Below, one piece after another: positions 49,222 through 57,290 of a stretch of 64,000 nt of DNA. A program made the translations under genes and the position numbers. The first letter of the stretch is position 1; each line of letters begins with the position of its first letter. Origin of the DNA: Prevotella sp. (GTDB lineage: Bacteria; Bacteroidota; Bacteroidia; Bacteroidales; Dysgonomonadaceae); assembly GCA_031285625.1 (NCBI GenBank), contig JAITVV010000043.1, forward strand, positions 1-64,000, written 5' to 3'. The notes under the pieces were generated by a model. The model worked only from the letters and a program-made list of their open reading frames with translations. It was not told where the DNA came from and made no database searches.

Positions 49222-50550
49222 TTAGTTATTAATTTCTTTTATTACTTCTATCAATCTTTCTTGTTCCAATATATATGTTCCAAGCCTGTCTTCCGAAATT
49301 CCATCTTTTAACTTATAAGTATATTCGGGAAATCCATTCTGTTTTATAATCTCTAGATACTTAAACTGAATATTAGATATACTCACAAGCTGCGACGTAA
49401 TCTCAATAATATGGGTTGATACGGCAAAACAAGAGTTACGAACTTCCGAAAAAGCCGATATAACAGCCAAAGACCCGTCATAAGCATCTTTGACATTAGT
49501 ACCTCTGAATAGCTCATCAAATATGACTAACAAATTATTAACCTTAAGTCTTTCTGCTATATATTTTATTCTTAATACTTCTGAGTAAAAGTGACTATAT
49601 CCTGAATTTAAGCTATCAGATAGATTTATAGTAGTATACAATCCTGAAAACAGACTAAAGCACATACTTTTTGCCGGAACAGGGAAACCGGCATGAGCAA
49701 GGAAAACAGCTATACCTAAAGACTTTAGAAACGTTGATTTCCCAGCCATATTTGGTCCTGAAACGAAAAGAAGATTCTTATCGGGATTAAAATCAATATT
49801 ATTCTTTACAGGGTCCTTCAGGAACGGATGGAACAAGCCCTCAATCCTTATCATATTTTTCTCCGGCGAAACCTCAGGAAATGACAAACTATATTTTTCT
49901 GCAGCTTTAGACAACGACATAAAGACATCATATTCATACATCAAGTCTAGAAGAAAGTTTATCTGAGCTTTATGCGTATAACGAAATAAATAATCGTATT
50001 GTGCAGTTTTATATGCACTTATTTTCTCTAAACTTTTTATTTCCGATATTGCAGCATATTCATCCTGAGAAAACAATTTAGATATTTTTTCATTGTTTTT
50101 TTCAATTAAATCCGGACATCCTTTTTCCTGCAAATCTAAAGACAGCTTGTATAAAGAATTTATTAAATCAAGCGTATAATCTACCCCCCTTTCGATAATA
50201 TAATAATCATTATTAGGACTCAGTTTGTTCAAAAATCCTTTTTCAATAGCAGCAAACCTTGAAGGGGGCTGTGTAGGGTAATTACCCAAAGTCAGGTAAT
50301 GCTCTATAAAATCAAGAGAATTTTTATCTATATCTACTGTTATTTTTGAATTCTTAAAAAAGGCTATTGCATCTACTCTTTGACGGATATCATCGAAATT
50401 ATCCAATGGTGAGTTTAAAAAGTCATACAGTTTATTTTTTCCACCAAGACTACGCGTAAAATTAAACAGATCAAAAATAGACTTACTATTCTTAACCGTT
50501 TTAAAAATTTCTATGTCTTTCAATGTCTGACTATCAAACTCAAAACTCAT
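49222..50550 (-). CDS. short MutS-related ATPase (domain V plus partial III)
   Basis: GLFHP, SGPNMAGKST, SHFYSEV, FDELFRGTN, STH; no mismatch-recognition domain. Confidence 0.9.
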   Translation of the reverse strand: MSFEFDSQTLKDIEIFKTVKNSKSIFDLFNFTRSLGGKNKLYDFLNSPLDNFDDIRQRVDAIAFFKNSKITVDIDKNSLDFIEHYLTLGNYPTQPPSRFAAIEKGFLNKLSPNNDYYIIERGVDYTLDLINSLYKLSLDLQEKGCPDLIEKNNEKISKLFSQDEYAAISEIKSLEKISAYKTAQYDYLFRYTHKAQINFLLDLMYEYDVFMSLSKAAEKYSLSFPEVSPEKNMIRIEGLFHPFLKDPVKNNIDFNPDKNLLFVSGPNMAGKSTFLKSLGIAVFLAHAGFPVPAKSMCFSLFSGLYTTINLSDSLNSGYSHFYSEVLRIKYIAERLKVNNLLVIFDELFRGTNVKDAYDGSLAVISAFSEVRNSCFAVSTHIIEITSQLVSISNIQFKYLEIIKQNGFPEYTYKLKDGISEDRLGTYILEQERLIEVIKEINN

Positions 50551-50562
50551 TTACACTGACTT

Positions 50563-51927
50563 TTACAATGAGATATTATTTATCAATTCTATCAATCCTT
50601 CTTTCTTTATAATATACATGCCCAGCCGGATATCGGTAACTCCTTCTTTCAGCTTATATGTATATACCGGATGACCGTCTTCTTCTTTGATATCGAAATA
50701 GCAAAATTTTATATTTTCATTGGATTGCAACTCTCTGGCAACCTCTACAATATGCGAAGAAATAACAAAAAATGAAGTCTTAATCTTTGCAAAAGCAGAT
50801 ACAACAGATAGCGTACCATCATAAGCATCTTTCACATTAGTCCCCCGGAATAATTCATCAAAGAGAACCATCATATTATTATTTTGCTGCAATTTATTGG
50901 CAACATCTTTGATCCTCATCACCTCAGCATAAAAGTGGCTGTATCCCGAATTCAGATTATCAGAGATATTAATCGTAGTCGATAACCCGGACAGTATACT
51001 AAGTTTCAGCTTGCTGGCAGGAACAGGAAAACCGGCATGAGCCAGATAGACAGAAACTCCCAAAGCTTTCAGAAATGTAGATTTTCCCGCCATATTAGGA
51101 CCTGATACAAATAACAAATTAGATGAGGCTCCAAAACTCACATCATTTGCTACCGCATTCTCTACAAAAGGATGAAACAGACCTTCTATCTCAAGACAAT
51201 TTTCATTATCTGACACCATTTCAGGATATGAGAAATCATACATCTCGGCAGCTTTAGCTATCGACCTGAAAGCATCGTATTCATAGATAACATCCAGAAA
51301 GAACCTAAGATAATTTTTATCCGCATACCGAAATAAATAATCGTAGGTAGTAGTTTCTGTTGTTTTCACTTTCTTATGCTTTATAATATCAGCATAATCA
51401 GGTTCGGAAAGTATCCTGATCACCTCATTACTATTCCTTAAAAGTAATTTCGGTATATATTCATTTTTCGATCTGTCAATTAAAGTTTGAGAAAATAGAT
51501 GAAGTGTTTTTAATAGATCTATTGCTGCACCAACTCCGTTTTTAATCAAATAATAATCATTATTCGTGCTCAGTTTATCCAGCAAAAATTTCTCAAAGGC
51601 CATGTACCGGGAGGGAGATTTCGTCGGATAATTAGCATGTCTGAGATAATACTCTGTAAAGTCAAGAGAATTTTTATCCACACTCATACCTGCTGGACAA
51701 TGTTTCTGAAAAAAGGCAATAGCTTCTTTTCGCTCTGTAATCTCATCCAGATCAGTTGAAGGAGAAGCCAGAAAACTATGTATTTTCTTTTTTCCCCCAA
51801 AACATTTGGTATGATCGAACAAATCAAATACAGATGTTCCGTTACTGACTGTATTAAATATCTCGAGATCTTTCTTTGTTTGACTATCAACTTCAAATTT
51901 CATATTTTCCATATTATAAGATTCCAC
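50563..51927 (-). CDS. short MutS-related ATPase (paralog of the adjacent gene)
   Basis: GLFHP, SGPNMAGKST, SHFYAEV, FDELFRGTN, SSH. Confidence 0.9.
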   Translation of the reverse strand: MESYNMENMKFEVDSQTKKDLEIFNTVSNGTSVFDLFDHTKCFGGKKKIHSFLASPSTDLDEITERKEAIAFFQKHCPAGMSVDKNSLDFTEYYLRHANYPTKSPSRYMAFEKFLLDKLSTNNDYYLIKNGVGAAIDLLKTLHLFSQTLIDRSKNEYIPKLLLRNSNEVIRILSEPDYADIIKHKKVKTTETTTYDYLFRYADKNYLRFFLDVIYEYDAFRSIAKAAEMYDFSYPEMVSDNENCLEIEGLFHPFVENAVANDVSFGASSNLLFVSGPNMAGKSTFLKALGVSVYLAHAGFPVPASKLKLSILSGLSTTINISDNLNSGYSHFYAEVMRIKDVANKLQQNNNMMVLFDELFRGTNVKDAYDGTLSVVSAFAKIKTSFFVISSHIVEVARELQSNENIKFCYFDIKEEDGHPVYTYKLKEGVTDIRLGMYIIKKEGLIELINNISL

Positions 51928-52078: not shown

Positions 52079-53209
52079 CTATAATTCTCTCATATAACCT
52101 ACAATTGTCTTCATCGCAGTACCCCAGTTTAACCGCGTCTCAAAATCGTTATATGCAGATAAGGCAAGTTCATTGTAGTATTCCTTATTATTAAATATCT
52201 TATAAATCTGTTCTGCATAATCCTTTGGCGCCACATCCGGACTAAGGATTATTCCGTTTGTATCGTTCACAATAGATGGAATTCCCCCTGTAGCGGCAGA
52301 TATACAGGGAACACCGTATGACATAGCTTCTGAAAATACAATCGGAGTACAATCTGCCCGCGATGGAATAAACAGGAAATGGCTTTGTAAGATCAAGTCC
52401 TCCACTTTTTTCATTCCTTCGGGAGTAGCCTTACTTATCCGTCCATGATTAATGATATATGGAGGAAGGTTTTCCACTACCAGATCGTCTATGCCAACTA
52501 TATGCAGTTCCACCGGCTGATGCAACTCTTCATTTAAAAATTTAACAGCCTCAATGGTTATATCACCACCTTTGCGAAACCACTCTACGCCAAGAAAAAG
52601 TATTTTACATACATTCGGGTCTCTCCTTTTTACTGCATCTTTTATTTCATCTAAAGATAATTGCCTGGTAGAAATATTTGCTCCGAAAGGTACAATCTTT
52701 ACTTTGGCAGGATCAGTGTTATAATCTTTAATAGCACTATCTGCAGCCCACTGTGAACTATAAATAGCCAGACTCGAAGTATCTAATGATAATTGCTCCA
52801 TCTGCGTCCCCTCTTTGATATATAGTTCACTAAGGTTTGTAAAATAGTTATAATAATTAATCATAGAGGCAAACGTGGCATCCGTATAGATTACTTTATG
52901 CTTACTGGTTTTCAGGTAAGACATCAGAGTAGAACTATGTGAAAACAGGATATCAGTTGCAGGATTTAATCGTGCCGATATTTGCTTAGCATAATTTTTC
53001 CCAAATTCAGGCGAACGATCAGCCCTGTATATCTTATTTCTTCCATATAACCTATTCTTTACTTTAAGAGAGAATGTCCAGTCCTCATGCAGATCTGTGA
53101 TATAATCTACGTGGGCATATTTTGCAAGGCTGGTCGCTTGAAAATGAACAGTACCTGACCAATGCTTTATATCAATCGATGGAAAATTAGTTACATAAGT
53201 TACATTCAT
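52079..53209 (-). CDS. GT4 (GT-B) glycosyltransferase
   Basis: VPFGAN, FLGVEWFRKGGD, PSRADCTPIVFSEAMSYGVP..TGGIP. Confidence 0.9.
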   Translation of the reverse strand: MNVTYVTNFPSIDIKHWSGTVHFQATSLAKYAHVDYITDLHEDWTFSLKVKNRLYGRNKIYRADRSPEFGKNYAKQISARLNPATDILFSHSSTLMSYLKTSKHKVIYTDATFASMINYYNYFTNLSELYIKEGTQMEQLSLDTSSLAIYSSQWAADSAIKDYNTDPAKVKIVPFGANISTRQLSLDEIKDAVKRRDPNVCKILFLGVEWFRKGGDITIEAVKFLNEELHQPVELHIVGIDDLVVENLPPYIINHGRISKATPEGMKKVEDLILQSHFLFIPSRADCTPIVFSEAMSYGVPCISAATGGIPSIVNDTNGIILSPDVAPKDYAEQIYKIFNNKEYYNELALSAYNDFETRLNWGTAMKTIVGYMREL

Positions 53210-53248
53210 TGTCTATTCTTTTTTAAGTAAAGATAAGGTTTATTTTTA

Positions 53249-53318
53249 TGTCATTCTGAACGAAGTAAAGAATCTCATGGTTAATAAGACACGAGATGCT
53301 TCGTTCCTCAACATGACA
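53249..53318. repeat. REP-like palindrome family 1 (core only) downstream of argC
   Basis: TGTCATTCTGAACGAAGTAAAGAATCTC...GAGATGCTTCGTTCCTCAACATGACA. Confidence 0.78.
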
Positions 53319-53340
53319 AAAAAACATACACAATACTACT

Positions 53341-54309
53341 CTAAAAAGCTGATGCCTTCAATTTTAACCCTACAGTCTCTTCCAGACCAAAGATCAGGTT
53401 CATATTATGAACAGCCTGACCGGAAGCACCTTTCACTAAGTTATCTATACATGAGAGAATGAGAAACTTATTACCATGCTTTTCGAGATGCAAAACACAC
53501 TTATTAGTATTTACTACCTGCTTCAGATCAATATTCTTATCTGAAACAATAACAAATGGACTATCTTTATAAAAGTCTTTATATATTCTTTCAGCATCTT
53601 CTATCGTCCCATCATAGTTAAGATACGTAGAAACAAAAATACCTCTGGTAAAATTTCCGCGTACAGGTATAAAATTAATTTCGGATGCGAAATTTGCCTG
53701 TAATTGGGTCAATGACTCACCTATCTCTTGCAGATGCTGATGTTCGAAAGCTTTATATACCGATATATTATTTTCACGCCAACTAAAATGAGATGTTGCG
53801 GAAGGCTTCACTCCTGCCCCTGTAGATCCGGTAATAGCATTTACATGAATTTCTGTATTCAGCAATCCTGCATTGGCCAATGGTAATAGGCCTAACTGTA
53901 TAGCTGTAGCAAAACAACCCGGATTAGCAATATAAGAAGTATTTTTTATTTTCTCTTTGTTTAGTTCAGGCAGTCCATATACAAATTTATTACCCTCTGC
54001 TTTGTGGCGATAATCTGTAGACAGGTCAATTATTTTCAAGTGACCAGGTATCTGGTTTGCTTCCAGAAACTTTTTAGTATCTCCATGAGCCGTACAAAAG
54101 AACAGAACATCAATCTTCTCGTAAGGTAACTGATCTGTAAAAGACATATCTGTCTCGCCCAAAAGTCCTCCATGAACGTCTGTTAACTTATTTCCCGCAT
54201 TACTGGTACTGTTTACAAATACCAGTTCCACTTGTGGATGGTTGAGTAAGATTCTTATCAGTTCTCCCGCCGTGTAGCCTGCGCCACCTATTATTCCTGC
54301 TTTTATCAT
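53341..54309 (-). CDS. argC: N-acetyl-gamma-glutamyl-phosphate reductase
   Basis: IIGGAGYTAGEL, YGLPE, IANPGCFAT, IDNLVKGASGQA. Confidence 0.96.
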   Translation of the reverse strand: MIKAGIIGGAGYTAGELIRILLNHPQVELVFVNSTSNAGNKLTDVHGGLLGETDMSFTDQLPYEKIDVLFFCTAHGDTKKFLEANQIPGHLKIIDLSTDYRHKAEGNKFVYGLPELNKEKIKNTSYIANPGCFATAIQLGLLPLANAGLLNTEIHVNAITGSTGAGVKPSATSHFSWRENNISVYKAFEHQHLQEIGESLTQLQANFASEINFIPVRGNFTRGIFVSTYLNYDGTIEDAERIYKDFYKDSPFVIVSDKNIDLKQVVNTNKCVLHLEKHGNKFLILSCIDNLVKGASGQAVHNMNLIFGLEETVGLKLKASAF

Positions 54310-54325
54310 TACAATATATTTATTG

Positions 54326-54764
54326 AAACACAGAGTAAGAAGAGTAGAAAAGAGTTTATATTGAATATCTTTTTATTCCGTCTCTCAATGATTTCACATT
54401 AAAATTAATCAAATATCCGATTTTACATCTGGAAAGTTTTAGATATGTAAATAATTGCGCTATATGAAGCGGATGTAGTTCTGCTACTGCTTTCAATTCA
54501 AGAATAACCTTGTTCTCTACTAATAAATCTACCCTGTATCCAGCTTCGATTTCGATACCTTTGTATTCAATAGGCATTTCTTCTTGGCGTGTCACGCGTA
54601 AACCACTTTCTGCTATTTCATAGAAAAGACATTCTTCATATACTCTCTCAAGTAATCCCGGTCCAAGAGCAGAATGTACATCATATGCGCATCTTAATAT
54701 TTCTCCTGTTAATTTTTGCTCTTCAAACATAAAAACTCTTTTCTACTCTTTTTACTCTGTGTTT
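54326..54764. mobile_element. IR-bounded GxxExxY cassette inserted between argG and argC
   Basis: AAACACAGAGTAAGAAGAGTAGAAAAGAGTTT (54326-54357) and its reverse complement (54733-54764), 31/32 identical. Confidence 0.7.
54356..54730 (-). CDS. GxxExxY protein (PD-(D/E)xK nuclease superfamily)
   Basis: LGPGLLERVYEECL, YRVDLLVE..VILELKA, QLFTYL..GYLINF. Confidence 0.93.
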   Translation of the reverse strand: MFEEQKLTGEILRCAYDVHSALGPGLLERVYEECLFYEIAESGLRVTRQEEMPIEYKGIEIEAGYRVDLLVENKVILELKAVAELHPLHIAQLFTYLKLSRCKIGYLINFNVKSLRDGIKRYSI

Positions 54765-54774
54765 AATACAATTA

Positions 54775-55974
54775 TTACTTTCCGTTTTTCTTCTGTACAC
54801 TATGATATATCTTATTAGTCATAGCATATATCTTGGTAAACCCTTTTGCATCATCCGATGTCCATGCTTTGTTCATTTCACCATATTCACCAAAATCGGC
54901 TTTCATCAGGTCAAATTCACTTTCTATGCCCACAAGTGTATAATGATATGGTTTCAGTTCAACAATAACCTTTCCTGTTACATTTCGTTGCGAACTGTCA
55001 AGCATAGCTTCGATATCACGCATTACAGGCTCAAGATACTGAGCTTCATGCAAAAACATGCCATACCAGTTACCCACCTGATCTTTCCAGTATTGCTGCC
55101 ATTTAGTAAGCGTATGTTTTTCCAGCATCTTATGCGCGTTAATAATTACAAGCGGAGCAGCTGCTTCAAAACCTACACGACCTTTTATTCCTATAATAGT
55201 ATCACCTATATGCATATCACGACCTATAGCATAAGCCGATGCTATTTCTTCTATTTTTTGTATAGCTTTTACTTTATCTGTATATTTTTCGCCATTTACC
55301 GCTGAGATTTCTCCTTCCTTAAAATCAATAGTCAACGTTTCTGAGCCTTGTTTCTTCAGTTGGGAAGGGTATGCATCCTCGGGTAAGGTCTGATCCGACT
55401 TCAATGTTTCTTTTCCGCCGATACTTGTTCCCCAAAGACCTTTATTAATAGAATACTCCATCTTTGTGAAATCGGCTTCATAGCCATGTTCTTTCAGGTA
55501 ATTGATTTCGTATTCACGGGTAAGTAGCATATCACGTGTAGGGGTGATAATCTCAATACCGGGAGCAAGCACATCGAAAGTAAGGTCGAAACGCACCTGA
55601 TCGTTGCCAGCACCTGTACTGCCATGAGCTACCGCATCAGCACCAATTTCCTTTGCATAATTAATAATAGCGATTGCCTGAAAAATACGTTCGGAGCTTA
55701 CAGATATAGGGTATGTACCATTACGCAATACATTACCAAAGATCATGTATTTTATACTCTTCTCATAATATTCTTGCGTAATATCAAGACTAACATGCTT
55801 TACTGCACCTAATTTATAAGCCTTTTCTTCAACAACTTTCAGTTCTTCGGGCGAAAAGCCTCCGGTGTTAGCTATTGCCGTGTAAACCTCATAACCAAGA
55901 TCAGCTGATAAATATTTGGCACAAAAAGATGTATCTAATCCTCCACTGAATGCTAAAACGACTTTCTTTTTCAT
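54775..55974 (-). CDS. argG: argininosuccinate synthase
   Basis: VVLAFSGGLDTS, AHGSTGAGNDQVRF. Confidence 0.96.
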   Translation of the reverse strand: MKKKVVLAFSGGLDTSFCAKYLSADLGYEVYTAIANTGGFSPEELKVVEEKAYKLGAVKHVSLDITQEYYEKSIKYMIFGNVLRNGTYPISVSSERIFQAIAIINYAKEIGADAVAHGSTGAGNDQVRFDLTFDVLAPGIEIITPTRDMLLTREYEINYLKEHGYEADFTKMEYSINKGLWGTSIGGKETLKSDQTLPEDAYPSQLKKQGSETLTIDFKEGEISAVNGEKYTDKVKAIQKIEEIASAYAIGRDMHIGDTIIGIKGRVGFEAAAPLVIINAHKMLEKHTLTKWQQYWKDQVGNWYGMFLHEAQYLEPVMRDIEAMLDSSQRNVTGKVIVELKPYHYTLVGIESEFDLMKADFGEYGEMNKAWTSDDAKGFTKIYAMTNKIYHSVQKKNGK

Positions 55975-56069
55975 TTCTTCAATTGCTTTTGGGTCTCAGA
56001 CCCTTTTATTTTCTATATTGATATTCTAAAGTAACTGTTAGGAATTTTATAATAACTTATATTCTGCAT

Positions 56070-56702
56070 TTAAAGCTTACCTTTTTCAATCTTCTTTATT
56101 ATTGCTTTTACTTCTTTCTTATCCTTTTGTTTTTCAGGATCGAAAAGCATGGCCGTGCATATACAGTATTTTCTCTCGGTACGGGTAAGCACATCATAAT
56201 TCACACACCCCTGACAACCTCGCCAAAATGCCTCATCATCAGTCAACTGTGCAAATGACACCGGTACATAACCAAGTTCTGTATTTATTTTCATTACAGC
56301 AGCTCCCGATGTTAACCCAAATACTTTTGCTTCAGGAAACATGGCTCTGGCCAGAGAAAAAGCATGTTGCTTGATCTTTTTAGCCAAACCGTGTTGTCTA
56401 AATTTCTCAACTACAATAAGTCCTGAGTTTGCAACATATTGCTTGTTACCCCAGGATTCGATATAGCAAAAACCGGCAAATTCATCTCCCATAAGAGCGA
56501 TAATAGCTTTTCCTTCCTTAATCTTGAGTTCAAGATATTCGGGCGAACGTTTTGCAATACCTGTACCGCGAACTTTTGCCGCAGCTTCTATTGTATCCAA
56601 TATGGTCTGCACATAGCTAAGATGCTGCTCTCCTGCTATCTGTATAGTGAGTTGTTGTTGCTCCATGGGTTTTTCTACCACTAGTTCTTCTACGTTGTTC
56701 AT
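56070..56702 (-). CDS. GNAT acetyltransferase, probable Bacteroidetes-type N-acetylglutamate synthase
   Basis: AKVRGTGIAKRSP, FCYIESW, VANSGLIV, FWRGCQGC..CICTAM; between argR and argG. Confidence 0.85.
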   Translation of the reverse strand: MNNVEELVVEKPMEQQQLTIQIAGEQHLSYVQTILDTIEAAAKVRGTGIAKRSPEYLELKIKEGKAIIALMGDEFAGFCYIESWGNKQYVANSGLIVVEKFRQHGLAKKIKQHAFSLARAMFPEAKVFGLTSGAAVMKINTELGYVPVSFAQLTDDEAFWRGCQGCVNYDVLTRTERKYCICTAMLFDPEKQKDKKEVKAIIKKIEKGKL

Positions 56703-56712
56703 TGTTATTGTT

Positions 56713-57168
56713 CTATTGAATATTGGGTATAAATGCAGATAATGAGTCAATAACTTCCTCTCTGCTTATATTTTCTCTTGGTATCAGCAAGATGGTATCA
56801 TCACCTGCTACTGTACCTAATATATATCCGGATGCCTTATTATCTATTTCACCTGCTATTGCCATTGCATAACCGGGACGAGTCTTCATTACGGCTAATT
56901 GGCCTGAAAACTCAATACTGACAAAACCGAAAGAAGATAAAGGATTTTCATCCTGAATAGTAGCTATATTTTCGGAGAACTGATAGATGTAACTTCCCTG
57001 TGATGTCGGCACTTTTACTATTTTCAGTTCCTTTATGTCACGCGACAGTGTAGCCTGAGTAAGCTCAAAGCCTCTTTCTATCAACATCTTAAGAAGCATA
57101 TCCTGACTATTTATTTCACTCGTCTGAAGCACTTCCTTTATTATTTTATGTCTGAATTTTTTAGTCAT
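56713..57168 (-). CDS. argR: arginine repressor
   Basis: TQATLSRDIKEL, KTRPG, GTVAGDDTIL; ATG at 57168. Confidence 0.95.
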   Translation of the reverse strand: MTKKFRHKIIKEVLQTSEINSQDMLLKMLIERGFELTQATLSRDIKELKIVKVPTSQGSYIYQFSENIATIQDENPLSSFGFVSIEFSGQLAVMKTRPGYAMAIAGEIDNKASGYILGTVAGDDTILLIPRENISREEVIDSLSAFIPNIQ

Positions 57169-57169
57169 A

Positions 57170-57208
57170 CACGTATAAATATGCAAAAACAATGCAAAAA
57201 TATACATT
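57170..57208. promoter_or_regulatory. tandem ARG boxes overlapping the argR promoter
   Basis: Cores TGCATATTTATACG (57172-57185) and TGTATATTTTTGCA (57193-57206) separated by 7 nt (canonical 18+3+18 layout); the second contains a TAttTTTG -7 element. Confidence 0.8.
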
Positions 57209-57249: not shown

Positions 57250-57290
57250 ATAAAGGAGGAGACAACTCCCTTTATTGTCTCCTCCTTTAT
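57250..57290 (-). terminator. terminator after the GH3 gene
   Basis: 16-bp perfect stem ATAAAGGAGGAGACAA/TTGTCTCCTCCTTTAT. Confidence 0.88.

Follow-up and report, generated by a model that had tools for sequence, protein, structure and literature searches.

The argG–argC junction and its cassette

The DNA analysed here (the window) comprises the first 64,000 nucleotides (nt) of contig JAITVV010000043.1 from a Prevotella sp. assembly (GCA_031285625.1), placed in the Dysgonomonadaceae by GTDB. Between its genes argG and argC lies a small cassette, in which a gene of the GxxExxY family is bracketed by long inverted repeats, and this cassette and its relatives are the subject of the present analysis. 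The window belongs to a 4.84-Mb genome denoted G000; other G numbers stand for congeners, and L numbers for extracted loci.

Two inverted arms of 36 nt, 94% complementary (34/36) and with 367 nt between them, are returned by an inverted-repeat search (Table 1). They contain the 32-bp repeat (31/32 identical, extendable by TATT/AATA) that the initial annotation of the window had described around the 124-amino-acid (aa) GxxExxY gene. Its placement of one arm 2 nt before the ATG and of the other over the stop codon holds for this 32-nt core, and the 36-nt version of the upstream arm takes in the A and T of the ATG. The AGAGTA-like subrepeats it had noted are AGAGT cores, three per arm, which start in the upstream arm at 54758, 54749 and 54739 and are thus phased by 9 and 10 nt. 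The spacers towards the host genes, first put at about 6 and 11 nt, measure 10 nt on the argG side and 16 nt on the argC side, or 6 and 12 nt once the TATT/AATA extension is counted together with a one-base bulge. With up to three mismatches allowed, the 29-nt core of the arm matches the window only at the two arms (two matches arose in 0 of 100 shuffles), and the same two arms are its only matches in the 4.84-Mb genome, where the backwards control gives 0. The predicted fold of the whole 491-nt RNA includes the long-range stem (−114 kcal/mol, z = −3.9).

No transposase is found in or beside the cassette among the open reading frames (ORFs) of the window and their Pfam matches, and no consistent direct repeat stands at the arm ends in nine copies at this site, in line with what was first noted on both counts. 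The hexamer ATTGTA, which occurs on both sides of the cassette in G000, was rejected as a target duplication, since it is absent in G004 and G008. A scan of 53200–56100 against Rfam gives a single miRNA-like match at chance level (E 0.47), and no terminator-like site is present at the cassette. The cassette lies between argG and argC and not in a 23S rRNA helix; an assembled 23S gene is absent from the contigs of G000.

The 124-aa ORF matches PF13366 (PDDEXK_3) at 146.9 bits (cut-off 22) and TIGR04256 at 152.8 bits (cut-off 35). PF13366 is its only Pfam match, with no S23p/PF05635 and no Y1 HUH domain of the RAYT kind. The residues G25-x-x-E28-x-x-Y31, D68 and E78-x-K80 are present, and are invariant in 17 proteins of the genus. 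The AlphaFold2 (AF2) model reaches a mean predicted confidence (pLDDT) of 90.8, and its best structural match is Cas4 SSO0001 (Z 8.2, rmsd 4.4, 100 residues aligned), followed by the BpuSI nuclease domain (Z 8.0) and Hjc (Z 7.0). Motif residues, model and structural matches bear out the PD-(D/E)xK fold named in the initial annotation and assign the predicted structure to this nuclease fold class, with no specific relative at such middling Z values. A sequence search of solved structures gives nothing at E ≤ 0.01, a Foldseek search of the PDB gives nothing at E ≤ 0.001, and no PHROGs family matches. PADLOC returns weak matches only (E 0.008–0.025), a Cas4-like one among them (E about 0.02). In the available part of a 2012 survey of the PD-(D/E)xK superfamily (PMC3424549), PDDEXK_3/PF13366 is entered as 'Unknown', with multiple transfers.

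Table 1. Features in and around the argG–argC junction (window coordinates)
Feature	Position	Strand	Basis or remark
argR	56716–57207	minus	ORF list and profile matches
GNAT acetyltransferase gene	56073–56750	minus	ORF list and profile matches
argG (argininosuccinate synthase), upstream host gene	54775–55974	minus	TIGR00032, 270 bits
argG stop codon	54775–54777		
Spacer of 10 nt, argG stop codon to upstream arm	54765–54774	minus	
Upstream (5') arm, in coding-strand sense	54729–54764	minus	three AGAGT cores; inner end covers A and T of the ATG
GxxExxY/PDDEXK_3 gene, 124 aa	54356–54730	minus	ORF and profiles
Downstream (3') arm	54326–54361	minus	reverse complement of upstream arm, 34/36; overlaps TAA stop codon
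Spacer of 16 nt, A/T-rich, downstream arm to argC start codon	54310–54325	minus	
argC (N-acetyl-gamma-glutamyl-phosphate reductase), downstream host gene	53341–54309	minus	TIGR01850, 299 bits

Among the window ORFs, a GT4 glycosyltransferase gene comes next after argC. Just upstream of argR, at 57250–57290 on the minus strand, there is a terminator-like hairpin with a 17-bp stem and a T run, which probably ends the preceding 778-aa gene. Further along the same strand, at 49222–51927, two adjacent paralogous genes of 442 and 454 aa carry MutS domains III and V only.

Inverted word arrays around GxxExxY genes

The repeats are not peculiar to the arg operon. Ninety-five GxxExxY loci were collected, 18 from the genus, which is probably Dysgonomonas, and 77 across phyla, the latter being those with enough flanking sequence among the best 80 of at least 595 relatives in named genomes; within these best 80, protein identity across phyla is 50–68%. 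By their record titles they come from Bacteroidota, Ignavibacteriota, Chlorobiota, Chloroflexota, Proteobacteria, Planctomycetota, Verrucomicrobiota, Cyanobacteriota, Acidobacteriota, Chlamydiota and others, and include one archaeal metagenome-assembled genome. A bracketing inverted-repeat score above 13, which is about the 95th percentile of a mismatched-flank control, is reached at 12 of 25 GxxExxY loci of the genus, nearly all in the 124–128-aa class, and at 0 of 8 loci with the longer 143–151-aa class or a broken gene. This longer subclass (L039, L043–L046 and L049; 80–94 bits) has a tail rich in tyrosine and lysine and is devoid of flanking inverted arrays. Across phyla, a strict ungapped score exceeds 99% of the mismatched-flank controls at 21 of 77 loci. 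The strict score understates the pattern, in that nearly all best matches, strong or weak, share the word family C-R-C-N-R-A-G.

At least one such word is present in the flanks of 94 of the 95 loci. The 120 nt upstream of the genes hold 195 words in forward and 61 in reverse-complement orientation, and the 120 nt downstream hold 59 and 228, respectively; a distal control of 22.5 kb holds 39 (23 forward and 16 reverse-complement). Two or more inward-facing words stand on each side of the gene at 52/95 loci, and the reverse arrangement is seen at 9/95. The spacing has its mode at 9–10 nt (149 of about 280 intervals), most flanks (139/190) have two to four words, and the outermost word reads TT-n-ACCACAGAG. 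The words of the cassette itself are CACAGAG and two degenerate AGAGT units. Moreover, the variants follow the clades of the GxxExxY protein: CAC(A/G)GAGT belongs to the argG–argC clade, CACTGAG to a second clade, and C(A/G)CAAAG, common to Flavobacterium, to a third, and a fourth clade has no word. The expectations of the initial annotation that other GxxExxY genes would also have inverted repeats in their flanks, and that these would vary with the protein clades, are thus borne out.

Both the gene and the arms are under long-term purifying selection. Among the three closest cassettes (G000, G004 and G008), the ratio of nonsynonymous to synonymous divergence (dN/dS) of the GxxExxY gene is 0.04–0.14 with dS above 1, and the identity of the arms is 0.89–0.92 vs 0.60–0.64 at third codon positions. 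The upstream arm is kept in both G004 and G008. When the two arms of a locus are compared with each other in 46 arm pairs, mismatches occupy 7/408 (1.7%) of the fixed word positions, 33/306 (10.8%) of the variable word positions and 77/587 (13.1%) of the spacer positions (Fisher p = 6e-12 for fixed positions vs spacers). Transition mismatches that a G-U pair could accommodate number 30 on the sense strand vs 35 on the antisense strand (p = 0.62), and hence there is no bias towards pairing in the sense RNA. Mismatches concentrated in the spacers, together with the lack of a G-U bias, therefore point to selection on the word sequence in its inverted geometry and not on base pairing in the mRNA.

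A second gene family of the genus is built in a similar way. PF05635 genes, of the four-helix-bundle type known from 23S rRNA intervening sequences (IVSs), number 0–6 per genome in the genus and 0 in G000. They lie between protein genes, and their ORF is bracketed by inverted arrays of short tandem words. These words are GTTACRAG, TTTCAAG, CAGTYA, TAGC-type and GAATGAA, in contrast to the CRCNRAG of the cassette, and the GxxExxY-type word is found upstream of 0/29 PF05635 genes in the genus. In four congeners a PF05635 gene stands at or just past the 3' end of argC (G001:C38:12468-12782, G011:C122:1719-2033, G042:C18:12906-13199 and G047:C291:140-331), and therefore a second junction of the same operon gathers cassettes of this sister kind.

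Junction occupancy and gene-less arrays

The argG–argC junction was surveyed in 35 genomes of the genus and measures between 0 and 3345 nt. Nine of these genomes have the GxxExxY cassette at this place (G000, G004, G005, G008 and G043–G047). The gene is thus not fixed there; its fixation at the site across the family was one of the outcomes that the initial annotation had named as speaking against its proposal. Short junctions occur in 11 genomes. Five of these keep remnants of the arms, namely the tip of the right arm in G041, G007 and G013, and both tips in G022 and G024; the 61-nt hairpin of G024 resembles what an internal deletion would leave of the cassette in its sister G004. Compact junctions without any remnant are found in G049 (0 nt), G020 (1 nt) and G023 (23 nt), and from their sequence they look never to have been occupied. 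The remaining junctions contain GTTAC-type or GC-rich palindromic repeats, or whole genes, namely those for a GH43-like lipoprotein, for CotH-like proteins and for three membrane-protein paralogues in tandem. A discrete unit of about 440 bp, as initially proposed, is therefore present, absent or replaced among the 35 congeners, and the empty alleles which that proposal called for exist in G049, G020 and G023.

Two junctions show further detail. In G008 (L006), the stop codon of the GxxExxY gene is followed by a second complete short hairpin, formed by a copy of the left arm, a loop of about 17 nt and the right arm, which makes three arm copies. In G015 (L133, 2813 nt) the junction is filled by the three tandem paralogues of about 256 aa, and BLAST finds two extra places that match the first ~100 nt of argC.

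The inverted repeat might simply serve the arg operon as a terminator or as a stem-loop between its cistrons, and have no relation to the gene it encloses. Various hairpin-forming repeats do lie at this junction in other species. However, the junctions of 0, 1 and 23 nt have no hairpin, which rules out a hairpin native to the operon; the cassette has no terminator-like site; the same words recur at 94 of 95 GxxExxY loci; and the arm is not expected by chance according to the shuffles and the genome control. A generic hairpin is accordingly a most improbable account.

On the argG+argC tree the cassette has 9 carriers and its presence requires 9 changes, which is not below the number needed under shuffled labels. 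The carrier G005 is nested among G017, G042 and G003, which have an unrelated insert of 460–500 nt at the junction, with a flank dS of 0.08–0.26. Between G005 and G017 (flank dS 0.08–0.19) the difference is confined to the junction; it begins about 25 nt before the argG stop codon and stops where the right arm ends on its outer side. Neither argG nor argC shows an imported tract between these two genomes, and the sequence that immediately adjoins the arms is not seen to be co-converted with the cassette clade.

All nine site copies and one copy in G001 form a single clade (support 100/99), and the genus copies located elsewhere fall outside it. Within the cassette tree, G000 groups with G004 and G008 (100/99) and G005 with G043 (99/93), whereas the flank tree groups G000 with G043 (99). 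Forcing G000 and G043 together in the cassette tree is 51 log-likelihood units worse and is rejected by the approximately unbiased test (p-AU 5.6e-5). The G001 copy (G001:C78) has arms of its own and is flanked by a lipoprotein gene on one side and a peptidase-like gene on the other. The pattern is that of a lineage faithful to its site that has undergone losses, scarring and lateral exchange, as free-standing homing endonuclease genes show and as an old resident shuffled by recombination would also show. Of the mobile element proposed in the initial annotation, gain, loss and exchange are thus upheld, and high mobility is not: nine species carry a single clade that is confined almost entirely to one site, and G000 has one clear gene-less relative.

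That relative (G000:C14:58796-58942) is a pair of inverted CAC(A/G)GAGT arrays of ~145 nt with a spacer of ~77 nt, located just past the end of a gene and without a gene of its own. A single gene-less array is present at G000:C5:9663-9692. In the genus, each genome has between 0 and 37 arrays of three words, against about 0 in the backwards control, and paired arrays ~100 nt apart constitute hairpin elements of ~130 nt in G046, G047, G043 and G000. Gene-less arm pairs, which the initial annotation had suggested looking for, thus exist. The nine carriers have 5, 7, 3, 37, 26, 8, 0, 11 and 28 arrays, and 15 of the 26 non-carriers have none; with the two arms of the cassette subtracted, array number is associated with cassette presence (Mann-Whitney p = 0.0012).

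The array in G005 is a module of larger mosaic repeats. These intergenic mosaics (L172–L179) are composed of GTTAC-type, TAGC-type, AATTAAGAAT-type and CAC(A/G)GAGT array modules, the first three of which resemble PF05635 arms and also occur in dozens of copies in G003, G017 and G042. For the gene-less copies of G005 no clean filled/empty pairs were obtained, the other mosaic modules being too numerous in G017, G042 and G003.

Nuclease, repeats and related systems

The best reading of these data, held tentatively, is that the cassette is a selfish, promoterless unit made of a nuclease and its cognate repeats. In build it resembles the ORF-bearing 23S rRNA IVSs and in organisation REP/RAYT pairs, and its mechanism is inferred. 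The GxxExxY gene is set between two inverted arrays of C-R-C-N-R-A-G, phased at about one helical turn. These arrays may be what the encoded nuclease recognises, in the form of duplex DNA or of a hairpin, extruded or single-stranded. Cuts in them would promote the spread of copies of the cassette, or of its gene-less hairpin derivatives, to sites that match or are empty, much as with a REP/RAYT pair or a free-standing homing endonuclease. Expression of the gene would depend solely on read-through from argG. Once the 3' arm has been transcribed, the arms would pair in the mRNA and bury the start codon, which would keep the output of the nuclease low and the expression of argC intact.

The orientation of the genes bears on this mechanism. 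The neighbour was taken heuristically as the longest ORF between stop codons that reaches 110 aa or more and lies no further than 700 nt away, and related loci are not independent. On this basis the upstream neighbour is co-directional with the cassette at 82 of 93 loci and the downstream neighbour at 77 of 91; both are co-directional at 66/89 and both opposite at 0/89. The complete lack of antisense insertions in co-directional gene pairs is striking, as the arms are alike from both strands. Sense orientation fits a promoterless gene that needs read-through, and such a gene fits the initial annotation's view of a non-polar insert on the operon mRNA.

The same arrangement could be understood at the level of RNA alone. 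In that alternative, the arms are mainly an RNA stem in the arg transcript. Cleavage of the stem, by RNase III or an enzyme like it, would remove or silence the ORF and part argG from argC, with the nuclease gene as a passenger and the mobility of the DNA left to host recombination. The architecture matches that of the ORF-bearing 23S rRNA IVS, which, in the part of PMC4990558 available, measures 428–444 nt, has a 28-bp terminal stem and tandem heptamers before an ORF of about 120 aa, and is excised by RNase III. In both systems a unit of ~430–440 nt has terminal inverted repeats that make a long stem and short tandem repeats beside the start of a loop ORF of ~120 aa, and both are patchily distributed and regarded as selfish (PMC4990558, same part); the intervening-sequence comparison drawn in the initial annotation was thus apt in architecture. 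The long-range stem is part of the predicted fold, the arms adjoin the start and stop codons in the cassette and in most of its close relatives, the cassettes stand in sense within strings of host genes, and the PF05635 genes of the genus are similarly built.

On the other hand, the IVS as described there lies in rRNA helix 25/45 and the cassette in an mRNA operon (PMC4990558). The IVS ORF encodes an S23p/PF05635 four-helix bundle, and that of the cassette a predicted PD-(D/E)xK nuclease fold; RNase III excises the IVS, and the cassette is known here from DNA and assembled contigs. The sense strand has no excess of G-U-compatible mismatches, the mismatches fall in the spacers with the words kept, and many loci have arrays of poor complementarity. 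Moreover, the ORF is under strong purifying selection and hence is no decaying passenger.

The RNA data, which are contigs assembled from four runs of insect-gut RNA libraries (X1, X2, X3 and X6), contain the cassette, and one X2 contig links it to argG. They show no processing, and breaks at the arms are an effect of the assembly graph. Contigs of 435 nt that run from arm to arm (X1 and X3) were accordingly rejected as excision products, since a break is expected at a 36-nt inverted repeat with k=31. No inversion joint appears in the contigs, a type of data that would not reveal one, and argG and argC stay uncovered in X6, which carries no weight either way. A single X6 contig of 350 nt with a depth of 2.8 is circularly permuted. 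In it 54368 is fused to 54736 at a 6-nt string common to both, and the result is an in-frame unit of 369 nt in which the last three codons and the stop are missing. Because the two ends are not opposite each other in the stem, the joint is unlike stem cutting followed by ligation; template switching, a tandem copy or a circle could each account for it. Taken together, an RNA-level intervening sequence is unlikely. The initial annotation had likewise supposed that the arms pair in the mRNA and make the insert non-polar; the predicted stem and the sense orientation (66/89) support this part, and the absence of a G-U bias and the preservation of words over pairing do not.

Another explanation supposes a resident gene that serves its host, in which the nuclease was fixed early at the junction, the arrays are operator or regulatory sites, and the patchiness is due to repeated loss and homologous recombination. 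It would agree with the single clade of the nine site copies, the strong and long-lasting selection on gene and arms, the single copy per genome, the five scars as losses by deletion, and the conservation of the protein across phyla. In contrast, only 9 of 35 species have kept the gene, and gene-less arrays exist, some as hairpin pairs of ~130 nt. The swap between G005 and G017 is confined to the junction with no imported flank tract, and many phyla have the same layout at unrelated sites, just as the argG–argC clade itself has it at a second locus. In addition, the protein matches no known defence family beyond the weak Cas4-like hit. We consider a resident host gene improbable.

Returning to the selfish nuclease-plus-repeat unit, several points weigh against it. 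The junction is a general insertion hotspot, and turnover there is thus not specific to the element. Nearly all genus members of the lineage stand at one site, and an old resident with losses would give the same picture; the cassette lineage appears to occupy at least two loci, the second of which is known from a 2-kb contig in an assembly (G001) that is 51% complete. The link between words and clades could be explained by common descent of gene and arms alone. As for orientation, besides the dependence among loci, a null of 50% holds only for insertion that is blind to orientation. Ordinary bacterial genes are themselves co-oriented in about 70% of cases. The association between arrays and cassette presence does not reach significance when kinship is controlled, with ~4.5 of six independent pairs in the same direction and ~0.2 in the reverse (median p 0.125); significance is out of reach because there are only six pairs. 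Individual genomes also deviate. G023 has 21 arrays without a cassette of the argG–argC clade, G045 has the cassette and 0 arrays under the pattern used, G003 and G022 have arrays and no GxxExxY gene, and G000 has one gene copy with one or two gene-less relatives. Finally, we infer the recognition of the arms by the nuclease from their association alone.

Among known systems, the IVSs and the repetitive extragenic palindromes are the two closest kinds, and homing endonuclease genes and miniature transposable elements offer further comparisons. Free-standing homing endonuclease genes have a nuclease without a transposase, a site-specific and patchy occupancy, cycles of gain, decay and loss, and gene trees in conflict with their flanks, and in some phage homing endonuclease genes the start site is masked in the read-through RNA. 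The cassette resembles them in its patchiness (9/35 species), its single clade and its tree conflict (p-AU 5.6e-5). It differs in its arms, to which these genes have no counterpart, and in a protein unusually conserved across phyla for a homing enzyme; moreover, the homing enzyme cleaves the empty site, whereas the nuclease of the cassette is predicted from sequence and model. Miniature inverted-repeat transposable elements and insertion sequences share with it the terminal inverted repeats, the short gene-less derivatives and the intergenic insertion, and the cassette is distinct from them in having no transposase and no target-site duplication that could be found.

The repetitive extragenic palindrome (REP) and its paired form, REPIN, with the associated tyrosine transposase (RAYT) offer a further parallel. 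In the part of PMC3116915 available, as in the cassette family, a single-copy gene is flanked by inverted copies of a repeat that also occurs gene-less in hairpin-forming doublets, and the repeat type follows the gene lineage. The repeats also tend to be more numerous alongside the gene, a tendency for which the counts in the cassette family give p = 0.0012 over all genomes and a median p of 0.125 with independent pairs. The differences are that RAYT is a Y1 HUH enzyme (TnpA-REP) and the cassette enzyme belongs to the predicted PD-(D/E)xK class, that REP is a palindrome tagged with GTAG/CGTC and the cassette has phased arrays of 7-nt words, and that the cassette arrays are few (0–37 per genome) and its gene stands in sense inside operons.

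A broader proposal, possible and rather doubtful, extends the selfish unit to the whole family. GxxExxY cassettes would then be autonomous mini-elements of a new class in at least 15 phyla, with the 124-aa PD-(D/E)xK nuclease as their sole mobility protein, which would read phased heptamer arrays, probably as hairpin or cruciform, and copy itself and gene-less hairpins into intergenic operon sites. The rRNA IVSs and the PF05635 cassettes would be sister systems of this sort that use a different protein. The family is widespread and apparently undescribed; in the literature on GxxExxY, PDDEXK_3/PF13366, IVS and REPIN/RAYT, supplementary files excluded, no description of a repeat-bracketed cassette was found.

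GxxExxY/PDDEXK_3 is a large family whose function is given as 'Unknown' in the available part of the PD-(D/E)xK survey (PMC3424549), and a conserved DNA word tied to it in a fixed geometry leads to a direct biochemical hypothesis, namely that the arms are the substrate. The argG–argC junction provides a natural experiment for the cassette, with filled, scarred, empty and swapped alleles among 35 species. The link between family and word might also account for one type of hairpin repeat found between genes in Bacteroidota and in many further phyla, and the link to the rRNA IVS could illuminate the origin of the latter, which is called unclear in the part of PMC4990558 available.

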